Shown: positions 18,001 through 27,000 of the stretch, piece by piece
How positions within the stretch are numbered: position 1 is the first letter of the stretch
How the letters are laid out: the number at the start of each line of letters is the position of its first letter
Source of the DNA: a virus
Taxonomy: Duplodnaviria > Heunggongvirae > Uroviricota > Caudoviricetes
Reading direction: 5' to 3' (one strand)
Length of the DNA: 43,585 nt
IMG/VR virus record: IMGVR_UViG_2529292909_000016
Location: 1-43,585 of that record
Position numbers: made by a program

Positions 18001-21000
18001 GCTGAGAGTTGAGCTTGAGGAGACAAAATCAAAACTCAACGAGCAGCGTGAGTATTACGAAGGTGTTATCTCGGATGGGGGTAAGCGTATTGCTGAACTG
18101 GAGAAAAGCGAAGAGCAACTCATCAATGAGCGTGACCATGCTGAGTCCGCTTTAGATGATATGTACTTTGCAGCAACAGGTAACAGGCCGGAGTGGAGCA
18201 ACTGGTTCGGCTTTTCAGATGCTGTCGATGCCGTGGTTGACAGAATTGCTGATTTAGAAGCTAAACAATGCATTGAAGAGATGAGTAAACAAAGTTGCGA
18301 AGCTCGGGAGCGTGATTTGTTTGAATCATGGGTAATGCATTCAATTTGTATTTCCAAATCGACGCTTGAAGGATTGCGCACCGAAACTGGATACCGTAAC
18401 GCGACCTTATCAGGAACAGACTTCAACCGCATGTGGGAACAATGGAAATCTATCCGCGCCGCTGGCATTTCGCATCAAAGGAGAGTGAGATGGCGTTAAC
18501 ACACCGAGAACTCTGTCAGATTGCGTACAAGTTCCTTAAGCGCAACGGGTTCAAGGTTTGCTTTCATGACCGCTTTATAGCCGTAACCAGTACCGGAGAA
18601 CAGCCAGATGCTATGGGATTCAGAAATTCAGCATCATGCCTGATAGAGGCGAAGTGTTCTCGTGCTGACTTGTTGGCAGATAGAAAAAAGCGTTTCCGTA
18701 AAAATCCGTCTCTTGGAATGGGCGACTGGCGATTCTTTATTAGTGAGCCGGGAATTATTTCAATTGAGGATTTACCACCTGGCTGGGGATTACTTCACGT
18801 TGTTAACGGAAGAGTACGGAAAGTACATGGGTGGCCCAAGGGTAATTGCTGTTGGGGTAATCCTGACGATAAGCCATTTACTGGGAATAAGCAGGTTGAA
18901 TGCGATTACATGTTATCTGCATTAAGGCGCATGGAGTTGAGAGGGCACCTTAATGAAATATATGACGGTGTAATTGTTAATAAGAAAGAAGGAAACGCGG
19001 CATGATCACTATTACCAAAGAGCGACTACTGACAATCAAGCAGTGGCGCGAAACATACGGACCTGGTATCCGGTCGTACATCTTCTGCTGGTCTGCATAC
19101 GGCATCACCTCACCCGAAATTTTCCCCAGGAAGGGCACCTGCTGTTCCGGTATATCAATACCATTCAGCGATTTCACCGCCGCATCCGTGGTTTTGGAAA
19201 TGAAGCGCCCTGTCCCTCCGGAGATATAGTCAATCCAGAATTTCAGCGATTCCGGTGTGATATCCACCGCGCCGGGACGATACTGGCTGCCACCTGAGAA
19301 CGCATTCAGCCAGAATGCAAACGCCTTGTACGCTTCTGGCGTTGAACGTCTTCCCAGCTGGCTGTCAGGTTTTGGTGTACCAAACGGCATGTTCTCCTGG
19401 TAAATCTGCGCCCCCATGAAGTTTTCGTTCATGGCAAGATTCGCAAACGGACGCAGAATTGTCGGTGCTGCATTTTTCAGCAATGCCCCGGACAGCGTTT
19501 CCGACGTCTCACTGCCAATCGGGCTGAATGCCCCCAGGATACCACCGACAACATTACCGGCAGCACGGGACGCCGTCAGGTCACCAGCAGCCACACCTTC
19601 AGAGGTATGCCCGAGCAGGAAGAAAACGTTGTACCCGTAAGGCAGAGGAATACTCCAGTACTCTCCGGCCCTGCCCCCGAACATCGATTTCATAATGACG
19701 AGGTTACGCTCTTTCACATGATACGGCACCTTGTCGTACCAGTTAACCCCGTCATCATCCTCACCCGCCACACTGCGGTTAAGCGAGCCAAGCAGATAAC
19801 CCGCTCCCACAGCTGCAAGCGCGATTTTCTGCGGTACATTGAGATTCTTCCAGCGAAGGCGCTCCAGTAACGGCCCGTCGCCATTAAGATGTCCGAGCGT
19901 TCTCACCAGGTTTGCGGTCCCCTGAATGCTGGCGTTGGCAAACATATACAGCGAGTTCATCAGCGCTCCCTGCTCACCACGACGGTTAAAGTTCACCGTC
20001 ATGTTTTTGGCAAGAGATGCCGCCTGCTGGCGTGACAAACCGGCATCACGGGCGTGTTTATAGGCAGAAAGACGCAGAGCGTTTTCAACCGCGCCGTTGG
20101 CATCCTCGACCAGGTTCAGGAACGAATGCCATGCACCGATACTCTGGCCTTTCCATCCGCCCTTCGCCAGCGACACAAGGCGATCCATTTCCTTCTGCTG
20201 GCCTTCAAGGTCACCCATGTTAAACCAGCCGGTTTTACCTCCGTCCTCAACAAACTCTTTCCACACTTTCTGCCACTGTGCGCCTTTGCCCGTGAGGGTT
20301 TTACCCCGCAGACTTGCGTATACGGCTGACATGGCGGAACGGCTGTCTTTCACCACAGCCAGCGCGGATAAGTTATCCAGCCCTTTCAGTTTGCCGTCGC
20401 TTCTTCCCTGCTCAGCCTTCAGGTTCATCACCGCAGTCTGCACGTCACGGATGAAGTTACTGACCAGAAATTCCGGGTTATACGACGTGTTCACCGTTGC
20501 CAGGAAGCGGTTAACTTTCCCCAGCGTACGGATTACGGCGTTACTGGTTTCCGGCCCCATGTTCTTCATCGCACGCATCAGGCGCGGATCATGAAGTTTA
20601 ATGTAGTAAGTTTTGCCGTCCTTTTTGGTGGTGAAGTAGCGATCCGCCATCATTGCCATCGGCACAGGGCGCTCGACAACTTCGCGAATGGTTTCACCAG
20701 TTTCCTGGTCCTTGCGCTCTGCAATCACACGCATTGTATCCGGTCTGTCATCAGTGAATACCTGCCAGTAATCCTTGTCGGGATTATCCTGTACCAGTTT
20801 CAGGAAGGCGTTACCCACTTCATTTTTGCGATTGCGGATCAGCGATTCACTCAAATCCTGTATCGCCTGAGTGGAAGGAGACTGTGCGCGGGATGCACGC
20901 CCCATGGCCTGCTTACTTTCACGCCCGCCGATGGTGAATCCCTTGCCTGTACGTGGCTGTGACACCACACCGTCAACATCCTGCCCTTTCAGGGGGACGT

Positions 21001-24000: not shown

Positions 24001-27000
24001 CGACAAACGAATAAACACCGGACCTGACACGATAGCCGGATGCTTTATCAATCTGCAATGCAGAAAGCGTACGGAGCAGTTTCCAGGTATCCGACATGCT
24101 CCGTAACCCCGGCTTTCCGGCTGCATCCCTGCCGCGATGTATTTTTTCTCCAGCCCGGCGGTCAGCACTTTTCGCAGAGTGACATCACCCAGCTTTTTAG
24201 TCACACCGCCTGCAACCATATCCGGTACAAGCGCACCAATCAGGTTAACCCCTTTCGCTACCCAGACCGCTGAATCATCATATCCTTCAGTCATCGGTGT
24301 ATTCAGCGCCCGCTGCGCCCCCGGCGACATCTTGCCAGTCAGCCATTCATCCGAGGCTTTAGCGCCGCCACTGACTGCCTTGCCTGTGACCTTCAGACCT
24401 TTACCGACAGTATCAGTAACCGCATTTTTTCCATCAGGCAGAGTGTCGATGACCTCATCCGCCCCCTTGCTGCCACCGACAAAAATATCCTGAACAGTTG
24501 CGACTCCCGGCAGCCCCATACGGCTGAACTCATTTAAAATACGTGCCCCTGTTTTTACCGGGCTCTGAATCATCGCATCACCGAGTCCACGGGCCATTTC
24601 CCCTGTCCCCCGGACGGACTGGGCGACACCTTTCCCCATAGTTGGCAATACATCGCCCAGGCTGAACGACGTGCTGTTGTCCTTCCAGCGATTGGGATCG
24701 GAGAAAAACACATCATAGCTGTCAGTCTCTCCCGGCTGCTGAATGTTCAGGCTGTTGCGGCTCTGGTTGCCAAATTGCGCTTCAGGGCGCTGTTCATCGG
24801 AATAAGCCATACAGACTCCATAAAAAAACCCGGCACAATGACCGGGTATCAGGAAATAGTATTAACGGGAATGGTGAATTACTGCGCGTAATTCTGTTTC
24901 AGACCACGGATAAACTCAGATGCAGAGGCCGCGCTATCATCCCTGGCCTGTTCCCCCCTGGCCTTTTGAATACGGAGAAAATTCGCATACCCGTGTTCCA
25001 GCAATTTCTGATTCTGAGGCTCCAGCATTTCTGGCTGACGGGAGGCCACTTCTCTGGCAAATGCCTGCTTATCCGGATCATCACCCGCCCAACTGGTAAT
25101 CCCTTGTTGAATTTTTTGCTGCTGAATTTGCTGCTGATACTGCGGCAGTCCCATCGAAGCATAATATTGCGTCACTGCTCCCTGCGCATCACCGCCGTCC
25201 TGTGCAACCTTTATCGCTACCTGGCTGGCTCCTTTCTGAAGTTGATCCGCAGAAAGTCCCTGCTGCTTCGGCGTGAAATAGCCGAAATTTTTCGAAATTT
25301 CCGCGAATTTACTGCGATCCCTGACAAGCTCAACAGCCTTATCAACAGGCACCGCCAGCACGGTTTGATCATCAGGATGTGCACTGCCGTATTCCGTAAC
25401 GGGTTTATGTGCTGTAGAGCCATCACTGTATGTGAGATCAAGGCCGATAAGTATGTACCCTTCCTGCTGTGCCGGTACTATACTGCCAATCCTGGCCTCT
25501 TTTATCGTCTTTTTCCCGGTTGAATCGGGCATGCCAATACGCTGTTGCAGTTCCGGGCCAAACACCCCGGAAAGGACATCAAGATTCTCCGGCGTATTAA
25601 GTGAAGCGATAGCCCTGTCTGGCTTGTCATCAAAGATTTTTTGCAGGTTGTTCACGGCCTGACCCGCTTTCGCTACATAGCCATCATTCGCCATCAGCCT
25701 CAGCGGATTACCCTCTGACAACTGGCCGTAAAGACGCATTGCTGCATCCCGATCGCCAGCATCCACAGCCTTTCCAAGCGCCGCCATCACAGGCTGATCG
25801 CGCGCCAGCATATCGTTATACTCAAGCCGTCGCTGGTTGTATTTCTGCATCCGGAGTCGCTGCTGCTCCATACCCAGCGACGCATTCCGGTAATTCTGGT
25901 TGGCGTTAAACTCCCTTTGCGGGAATTTCTCACAACACGCTGCATATACCGGAGAATTTTGTCGTCCATTCTCTCACCAGAAACGGGTGCCATATCGGCT
26001 GAACCTCAGCAACCAGTTGACGGGGACTTTCGTCCCCGTCGCGGTTTTCCTACTGCTTACACTGTAAGAACGCCGCAAACTCCGCTCCCCACAAATTCAG
26101 CCGGAACTCACACAACGAGCCGTGTAACATCCAGATGGTGAAGATTACCGTCATACAAATTGTGACGGTGATGAGCGATTTTTGCGACATAGCGCTTGCC
26201 TCCTGAGTGGAGAGGCGCTAACCTTCTACTTGCTTAAGGTATGATGGTTAGGGCCTCGGGTTAAACAAAATGTTTGACTCGGGGCCTTTCCACATCAGGC
26301 CTTCAGGTTCACCTTCCAGCCATCAGCCGAAAGGCACCCGCGCATAATCTACGATTTTTGCCCTGCACGGGCAACAAAAAACCCGCCATCACAGCGGGTT
26401 ATGACATGTTGTCGGGTATTACTCAGAATTTCAGGCCAATGCCTGCAAATAAACCATCAGTTTTCCAGTCGCCAGAGCCTGAGCTTTCATAAGTGACGTC
26501 CATAGTAACACTTTCATTGAAGTTAAATTGCGCGCCGACAGACCATGCAATAGACGTTTTTTTGGTGCTGTTACTTTCAGAAAAACTACCTACACCACCA
26601 TTAAGATTGTCGTTAACTTTCAAATCATAAGTTACTTTTGCAACCGTAACACCTGCCATTGAATACACACTGAGGTATTCATTAAACCGCCACGAAGGAC
26701 CGGATAGTAGACTCCAGTAATTAGCCCTGATATCAGTTCTCGCTGAAGCTGCCGGTTTTTTTACCTCTCGTGATGGATCGGAAGGCTTAACATCAATGAA
26801 TGCCTGTGCATTAGTCATGGATCGAGCCCATGCAAAAGAGGTTATAACACCGATCTCATCCGTAATCTCATAACGATACTTAATGTTCATTCCCAAGGGA
26901 CTTTTCTCTTTACCATCATGGCCCCGGACAAACGCATCGTCATATTCTCCAGGTGAATTGAAATAGTTTTTATTCACAAAATTGTTAAAGGTATCAAGGT

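Follow-up and report, generated by a model that had tools for sequence, protein, structure and literature searches.

Three open reading frames in an Escherichia coli DEC6 prophage are very probably deletion fragments of two late genes of short-tailed Stx-type phages

Results

We analyzed a 43,585-nucleotide stretch of Caudoviricetes DNA (IMG/VR record IMGVR_UViG_2529292909_000016; "the window" hereafter denotes this whole stretch), which carries a prophage sited in the ynfG gene of E. coli DEC6D/DEC6E. Our subject is a string of three open reading frames (ORFs) at window positions 18977-25871, the last of which encodes a giant protein with two zincin-type metallopeptidase motifs. All three ORFs, and all features described within the string, lie on the minus strand; in reading order they encode 330 amino acids (aa; 24879-25871), 279 aa (23971-24810), and 1,706 aa (18977-24097). 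A preliminary description of the sequence had reported these ORFs (330, 279, and about 1700 aa) and had called the first two products Gln-rich and Gly-rich, which agrees with their composition (11.5% Gln in the 330-aa product, 12.9% Gly in the 279-aa product); neither product contains a Pfam domain. It had further read the string as three separate genes of increasing size and proposed that they form an undescribed system.

Among complete E. coli genomes, the best DNA matches to this region are O104:H4 strains, where the equivalent stretch is 5.5 kb longer and is annotated as a single 2,783-aa "LPD38 domain-containing protein", with a 421-aa protein and several small genes upstream. Alignment of the window to the O104:H4 locus (L001) with blastn gave four collinear blocks: 18455-19068, 19068-24115 (99.94% identity), 24113-25918 (99.94% identity), and 25917-27183. 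These blocks are separated by 1,118, 2,329, and 2,021 bp of sequence that are missing from the window, and the corresponding junctions J1, J2, and J3, which we placed using blastn offsets and junction sequences, show microhomologies of A, CTT, and TT, respectively.

The second ORF of the string is the start of the giant gene. The segment 24115-24810 is collinear with O104:H4 and contains the native start and first 232 codons of this gene, and the 2,329-bp internal deletion at J2 (24113-24115) begins at intact residue 233. As 2,329 nucleotides correspond to 776 codons plus one nucleotide, the reading frame shifts at the junction, and translation and gene calls show the 279-aa ORF running on into an out-of-frame tail of 46 non-native residues (23971-24112). 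Protein comparisons give the same picture: the 279-aa ORF matches PHROG 616 at profile positions 1-236 of 2793 (495 bits), and the 1,706-aa ORF matches the same profile at positions 1019-2701 (3,875 bits). In blastp, the 279-aa ORF aligns to intact residues 1-260 with 91% identity overall; we attribute the mismatches to the post-junction tail, and set the end of the native sequence at residue 232 according to the DNA junction. By both PHROG 616 and blastp, then, the second and third members of the supposed series are fragments of one gene.

The sequence around J2 also accounts for the translational coupling that had been proposed between these two ORFs. The TGA stop codon of the 279-aa ORF overlaps an ATGATG sequence that forms codons 42-43 of the giant frame, while the first ATG of that frame (24097) gives a 127-nucleotide overlap with the 279-aa ORF. 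The gene caller used for the public assemblies places the start of the giant ORF at the ATGATG overlap, resulting in a 1,664-aa product. In the intact gene, the Met codons at the overlap are internal (approximately residues 1056-1057). The stop/start overlap exists, but coupling is not a native feature of these genes; the overlap is an accident of the frameshift.

The giant ORF itself starts at an internal Met, equivalent to intact residue 1015. Its body (19068-24112) covers approximately residues 1009-2690 of the 2,783-residue protein at 99.94% DNA identity to O104:H4, with 3 mismatches in 5,048 bp. In blastp, giant residues 1-1677 correspond to intact residues 1015-2691, and at the amino-acid level the retained parts are 99.8% identical to the intact O104:H4 protein. 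At J1 (19068), a 1,118-bp deletion has cost the giant gene its ~92 last codons and its stop codon, and has also removed a 91-aa gene and the greater part of the convergent DUF551 gene; the ORF ends in a non-native 30-residue tail (18977-19067) encoded by the antisense strand of the convergent early-gene remnant. The window therefore lacks the family's single unbroken frame of about 2,780-2,810 aa: PHROG 616 positions 237-1018 and 2702-2793 are absent, the frame is shifted at 24113-24115, and both ORFs have non-native tails.

The first ORF of the string derives from the neighboring 421-aa late gene. It is 100% identical to residues 92-421 of the O104:H4 421-aa protein by blastp, and matches PHROG 601 at profile positions 89-434 of 443. 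The 2,021-bp deletion at J3 (25917-25918) has removed the first 226 nucleotides (the first 91 codons) of the 421-aa gene together with three small upstream genes in their entirety, and has left only the ~25 first codons of a fourth small gene (orf66-like), which are fused out of frame to the interior of the 421-aa gene. The 330-aa ORF begins at an internal Met because the native 5' end has been deleted. The 421-aa gene is homologous to VT2-Sakai orf70 and, as it directly precedes the giant gene, is presumed to correspond to the essential gene Sp5 ORF79. Separately, at least 1,000 contigs, those of E. coli O121:H19 among them, carry another 330-aa version of the 421-aa protein, which could reflect a different choice of start at Met92 or a shorter allele that is common.

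Between the first and second ORFs, a scan for terminator-like elements confirmed the hairpin and T-run noted earlier (24828-24847), located in the 68-bp spacer that separates the 421-aa gene from the giant gene. The 1,806-bp block 24113-25918 has a single mismatch to intact O104:H4, at position 24502; since the spacer lies within this block, the hairpin/T-run is native to the late operon.

Based on these alignments, we consider it very probable that the string at 18977-25871 is what decay has left of the right-hand end of a late operon, that of a short-tailed prophage of the 933W/Sp5/phi24B type (Sepvirinae), and consists of deletion-cut pseudogene fragments of two late genes. The ancestral layout would have been a run of small genes, the 421-aa gene (the presumed counterpart of Sp5 ORF79), and a single gene encoding ~2,783 aa (the counterpart of Sp5 ORF80 and phi24B gp47). 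Three illegitimate-recombination deletions, each with 1-3 bp of microhomology, then cut the region. One removed the 5' end of the 421-aa gene to leave the 330-aa ORF; the frameshifting 2,329-bp deletion split the giant gene in two, a 232-codon head that ends in a junk tail (the 279-aa ORF) and a body read from an internal Met (the 1,706-aa ORF); and the third cost the giant gene its ~92 last codons. In DNA, the retained parts are 86-92% identical to VT2-Sakai and 99.9% identical to the non-Stx prophage that O104:H4 carries at this ynfG site. With only 3 differences in 5,048 bp relative to the intact gene, the deletions are judged to be very recent.

The preliminary description had found no standard lambdoid module to explain the string, yet in short-tailed Stx-type phages the module is a standard one. 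The giant gene is intact in O104:H4, VT2-Sakai/Sp5, and phi24B, and the 12.1-kb intact O104:H4 module matches 207 phage records, 186 of which cover at least 80% of it in one place; nearly all of the matching phages are Stx-converting or related short-tailed Escherichia/Shigella phages. In VT2-Sakai and phi24B the gene order is lom, four small genes, the 421-aa gene, the giant gene (8,421-8,424 bp), and a convergent Ea22/DUF551/TraR/Ant group. The window retains this synteny: the giant gene closes the late operon, following lom and the 421-aa gene, and faces Ea22/DUF551 in convergent orientation; the small genes that would separate hok from the 421-aa gene have been deleted.

The broken allele, by comparison, is private to DEC6 strains. 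Using 200-bp probes spanning J1, J2, and J3, we found the same junction in none of 5,426 complete E. coli genomes, while each probe half by itself matches hundreds of them. An exact-match scan for J2 across one genome per species also returned no hit, and the only recorded carriers of the exact 279-aa product are E. coli DEC6D and DEC6E. We considered whether the broken structure might be an assembly or sequencing artefact of a genome that is in truth intact, as the source is a draft assembly and a neighboring tail gene carries an A-run frameshift, not found in the sister assembly, that may be a sequencing error. Against this, two NCBI assemblies (GCA_000249655.2 and GCA_000249675.2) and one independent Logan read-set assembly (of SRR094136) carry all three junctions at 99.98-100% identity, and the window is 100% identical to contig AIFY01000034.1 of GCA_000249655.2. 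The presence of every junction in all three assemblies indicates that the deletions are real, and an artefact is almost certainly not the explanation.

We rejected the opposite polarity, with ancestral short forms and an insertion that produced the long gene: the ORFs have out-of-frame tails, their junctions fall within conserved coding sequence, and only one lineage carries the short allele. In a separate case, E. coli ML35 (NZ_CP025747.1, 2209696-2216131) carries a different, independently frameshifted and truncated 6.4-kb copy that abuts sapB and is annotated as a pseudogene. This independent decay implies that the giant gene has been lost repeatedly in cryptic prophages.

The body of the giant gene retains LPD5 (giant residues 33-176, 23570-24001; Pfam PF18799, E = 2.5e-43), LPD1 (22850-23089), MuF-C (21653-21922; PF18819, E = 7.6e-18), and LPD38 (19127-19744; PF18857, E = 1.3e-46) domains, each of which exceeds the Pfam cut-offs; a weak PHROG match to "DarB-like antirestriction" lies over the LPD38 region. 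LPD1 falls within a first zincin-like metallopeptidase domain (22838-23590) that contains the motif HEWFH (giant residues 260-264, 23306-23320). The sequence EMAARAFERY (giant residues 351-360) had been suggested to supply the third zinc ligand, and conservation bears this out: H260, E261, H264, and E351, the last encoded at 23045-23047, are invariant in 32 sequences (the window segment plus 31 diverse homologues that share 38-65% identity with it). In a confident AlphaFold model covering giant residues 20-440 (mean predicted local distance difference test score, pLDDT, of 82.7), this domain has a zincin fold of the anthrax lethal factor-like (ATLF-like) kind. The unit of LPD5, zincin, and LPD1 also occurs as a stand-alone protein of ~560 aa, at ~45% identity, in many unrelated bacteria including Rhodobacterales; this occurrence marks it as a mobile module that is not specific to the Stx-phage giants.

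Through a homologue search and alignment, we delineated a second zincin-like domain of ~200 aa and HExxxH type (22118-22765), which contains HEIIHH (giant residues 527-532, 22502-22519) and a conserved Glu 583 (22349-22351). The search gave 388 homologues of this domain at E <= 0.001, most of them parts of proteins of 1,400-5,000 aa. In 173 aligned segments, H527 and E528 are conserved at 99%, H532 at 87%, and E583 at 100%, a pattern that in this alignment fits the HExxxH variant of Iyer et al. 2017 (PMC5512222). Composition alone would predict 0.04 HExxH motifs in the giant ORF, and both motifs reported earlier are present and conserved in distant homologues; from their conservation, we judge the two boxes to be real motifs of catalytic type.

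Searches beyond these domains were negative. With Pfam at permissive thresholds, nothing significant appeared for intact residues 234-1008 or around the second HExxH (Peptidase_M76 over the HExxH reached only E = 0.13), and the first ~1,040 residues of the intact protein are without a recognized domain. Pfam detected no methyltransferase, helicase, ART, or lysozyme domain, and a sequence search of solved structures with the intact protein returned nothing below E = 0.6. Neither Pfam nor PHROG gave a match to tape-measure or tail-fibre families, and the true fibre genes lie elsewhere in the window. A glycine-zipper-like segment, GNVVGGILGAFSPIG (giant residues 1514-1528, 19514-19558), had been taken to suggest membrane insertion. 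It lies inside LPD38, and a hydropathy scan gives the idea no support: no 19-mer has a Kyte-Doolittle mean of 1.5 or more, and the best values, ~1.2-1.4, occur at intact residues 181-200 and 2435-2457.

With so many domains retained, the truncated giant ORF (1,664-1,706 aa) might still be made by termination-reinitiation at the ATGA overlap and have been co-opted by the host, for instance as a superinfection-exclusion or effector-like factor. The 5-kb frame is still open, the ATGATG/TGA overlap joins it to an upstream ORF that keeps its native start, and all catalytic motif residues are intact along with LPD5, both zincins, MuF-C, and most of LPD38. An open frame is, however, the default expectation when only 3 of 5,048 positions differ from the intact gene. 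Moreover, the allele is limited to three DEC6-type assemblies, junk replaces the C-terminus, the antiterminator Q is truncated, the late operon is broken at several places, and the PADLOC defence models give no significant match (best DruE, E = 0.0057, 12 bits). We therefore regard co-option as very unlikely. Even less likely is the specific case of a ~1,660-aa product translated from the accidental overlap and acting in the DEC6 host, for example as a superinfection-exclusion or stress factor of protease or RNase type; if real, such a product would be an early snapshot of a phage ejection/polyvalent protein under domestication. In all probability, the three ORFs are pseudogene fragments with no current function.

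The rest of the prophage shows the same decay. The host genes ynfE and ynfF (11050-15960) are 98.6-99.1% identical to those of O104:H4, where the annotation shows ynfG as a truncated 4Fe-4S fragment bordering the prophage; DEC6 contigs show a short Fer4-type remnant at the equivalent position, indicating that the prophage interrupts ynfG here as well. Tail fibre, tail-tip, lom, and portal-remnant genes lie upstream of the giant ORF on the same strand. Relative to VT2-Sakai, ~4.4 kb of head genes and a further ~3.8 kb (terminase and most of portal) are missing, in line with the earlier suggestion that the prophage has lost its head genes: terminase, portal, and capsid losses are all seen. Only the C-terminal half of the Q antiterminator is left (41453-41716, minus strand; profile positions 64-118 of 118). 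It lies directly beside bet/RecT and exo/YqaJ (41823-43285, plus strand), which implies loss of the immunity/replication segment that phi24B has between gam and Q, with its N, cI, cro, O, P, and nin genes. The prophage is unable to make virions, and its late operon is most probably not efficiently transcribed.

We made several further observations in the neighboring genes. The loss of ~4.4 kb of head genes has created a 291-aa chimera (34363-35238, minus strand) of a portal C-terminus (P22_portal profile positions 515-594) and an SU10-type adaptor C-terminus. Near position 30001, a change from A6 to A5 splits a 541-aa tail gene into ORFs of 411 aa (29865-31100, minus strand) and 157 aa (29476-29949, minus strand); this gene is intact in the sister assembly, and the A-run loss reflects a difference between the strains or else a homopolymer sequencing error. 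An apparently intact NanS-p-type esterase of 636 aa (38821-40731, minus strand), with DUF1737, SASA, and DUF6645 domains, is a homologue of phi24B gp84, which has been reported as a capsid-decorating protein in a 2026 preprint (bioRxiv 10.64898/2026.04.10.717836). Upstream of the esterase, the window contains no stx genes or tRNAs; a tRNA scan of the whole window found none, and the tRNA cluster that precedes stx in phi24B is thus absent.

Between lom and J3 lies an intact ORF for a 46-aa toxin of the Hok/Gef family (26050-26190, minus strand), with a terminator-like hairpin at 26018-26041 (plus strand). Intact phages also carry an 83-aa gene annotated as "bacteriocin" just upstream of the 421-aa gene (positions 17147-17398 of L001, minus strand), which is deleted from the window. 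Its product belongs to the glycine-zipper (YMGG-like) proteins, and the C-terminal half is hydrophobic. The phi24B preprint found a "bacteriocin homologue" in virion preparations and treated it as a contaminant (bioRxiv 10.64898/2026.04.10.717836); the 83-aa protein might instead be a small virion-internal membrane protein.

Discussion

The three ORFs at 18977-25871 reflect ordinary gene decay rather than a new system, and the gene pair from which they derive, that of short-tailed Stx-type phages, has been described before. The family of the giant already appears in a genetic study of Sp5 (PMC5155283), a survey of polyvalent proteins (PMC5512222), and the phi24B preprint (bioRxiv 10.64898/2026.04.10.717836), so that the string does not qualify as the undescribed system first proposed. 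Nor does the case for a functional effector survive: by the preliminary description's own argument a decaying pseudogene would remove it, and the window copy is very probably just that.

Polyvalent proteins are giants delivered with invading DNA (Iyer, Burroughs, Anand, de Souza, Aravind 2017, PMC5512222). In that study, zincin metallopeptidases are the commonest domain of these proteins and are suggested to carry out polyprotein processing, MuF-C counts as a PBECR domain with a predicted RNase or RNA-binding fold, and LPD38 is restricted to phage-type polyvalent proteins (PMC5512222). Other LPD38 giants occur in Bcep22-like podoviruses and in a phage whose infection suffers on knockdown. From its several unrelated domains, LPD types among them, and its location beside late/virion genes, the intact giant is a polyvalent protein in this sense. 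The two zincin-type domains (HExxH and HExxxH) and the ATLF-like model back this annotation for Sp5 ORF80 and phi24B gp47.

Work on the parent genes indicates what they contribute to infection. Knockouts of Sp5 ORF79 or ORF80 (2,793 aa) abolish both plaque formation and lysogenization; DNA packaging and heads look normal, and tail-fibre antibody binding is lost (PMC5155283). In phi24B, gp47 was found in purified virions by mass spectrometry, is absent from the cryo-electron microscopy density, and is proposed to be a capsid-packaged ejection protein (bioRxiv 10.64898/2026.04.10.717836). The GenBank record of this protein (vb_24B_48), with a coding sequence of 8,424 bp, implies ~2,807 aa, and the preprint states 2,811 aa.

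In our model, the intact giant protein would be packed in the capsid, released through the short tail at infection, and needed for infectious particles. Its two zincin-type domains would probably cleave the polyprotein into working pieces, or act on envelope targets; the MuF-C/PBECR and LPD5 domains would probably target host nucleic-acid or defence functions; and the C-terminal LPD38 region would probably help to form or anchor a trans-envelope conduit. This mechanism is drawn partly from the literature and is partly what we infer, as are peptidase activity, virion packaging, and ejection.

The preliminary description had offered two readings of the string, and each holds in part. A virion-internal ejection protein of a podoviral prophage that has lost its head genes fits the parent gene, as seen for phi24B gp47 and Sp5 ORF79/ORF80, but the small, medium, and giant trio is a deletion artefact, and the analogy to T7 gp14/15/16 rests on that artefact. 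Likewise, a polyvalent or effector-like zincin protein describes the parent gene with its Pfam LPD5, LPD1, MuF_C, and LPD38 domains, but here the gene survives as a pseudogenized remnant rather than as a functional system. We also weighed a literal three-gene podovirus ejection set such as T7 gp14/15/16 or P22 gp7/20/16. The parent phage type is a podovirus whose giant is a proposed ejection protein, and the 421-aa neighbor is taken as the essential ORF79. Yet the "medium" protein is the N-terminus of the "giant" with a frameshifted tail, the "small" one is a 5'-truncated 421-aa gene product, and neither the fragments nor the intact protein shows a Pfam or PHROG match to T7 or P22 ejection proteins or to a lytic transglycosylase domain. 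Collinearity with the intact genes refutes such a set at this locus, making it extremely unlikely.

Several points weigh against our interpretation of a recently decayed, ejection-type gene pair. A direct ancestor is lacking, so that "deletion" is deduced from relatives, the relative here being 99.9% identical. The ATGA overlap could permit some termination-reinitiation and yield a 1,664-aa product. The giant fragment has only 3 nucleotide differences, too few to judge selection; all 3 alter an amino acid relative to O104:H4, and their direction is ambiguous against VT2-Sakai. For the parent protein, the Sp5 study read the ORF80 knockout as a tail-assembly defect (PMC5155283), and the ejection conduit and self-processing are hypotheses in the cited papers.

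Our analysis carries a caution for annotation: a prophage may hold a long open frame, catalytic motifs included, that is in fact a very recent pseudogene fragment, and DNA comparison with intact relatives settles the question fast. The parent family is of wider interest, as a ~2,800-aa virion-packaged giant needed for the infectivity of medically important short-tailed Stx phages and whose mechanism is so far a proposal. To that question the broken window copy contributes nothing, and the family itself has already been described.

Among the closest known systems is Sp5 (VT2-Sakai; 933W-type, Sepvirinae, Traversvirus), in which ORF80/ECs1242 and ORF79/ECs1241 form the same module with the same gene order and Pfam domains as the window. 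Compared with Sp5, the window copy lacks giant codons 233-1008 and the ~92 last codons and is frameshifted, its ORF79-like gene lacks the first 91 codons, and the prophage lacks head, packaging, and immunity genes. In phi24B, gp47 shares the genome position and the LPD5/LPD1/MuF-C/LPD38 make-up, but is intact in an infectious phage where the window holds fragments only. The T7 gp14/gp15/gp16 and P22 gp7/gp20/gp16 proteins are analogous in the role proposed for the parent giant, that of an internal protein ejected through a short tail to bridge the envelope; the parent, however, is one giant gene and not three, the apparent trio in the window having been produced by deletion. Finally, polyvalent proteins such as P1 DarB, JC1 gp69 (Bcep22-like), and PTXU04_00025 share with the parent giant a very large size, a multidomain architecture, a late/virion gene setting, zincin hubs, MuF-C/PBECR, and an LPD38 domain near the C-terminus.

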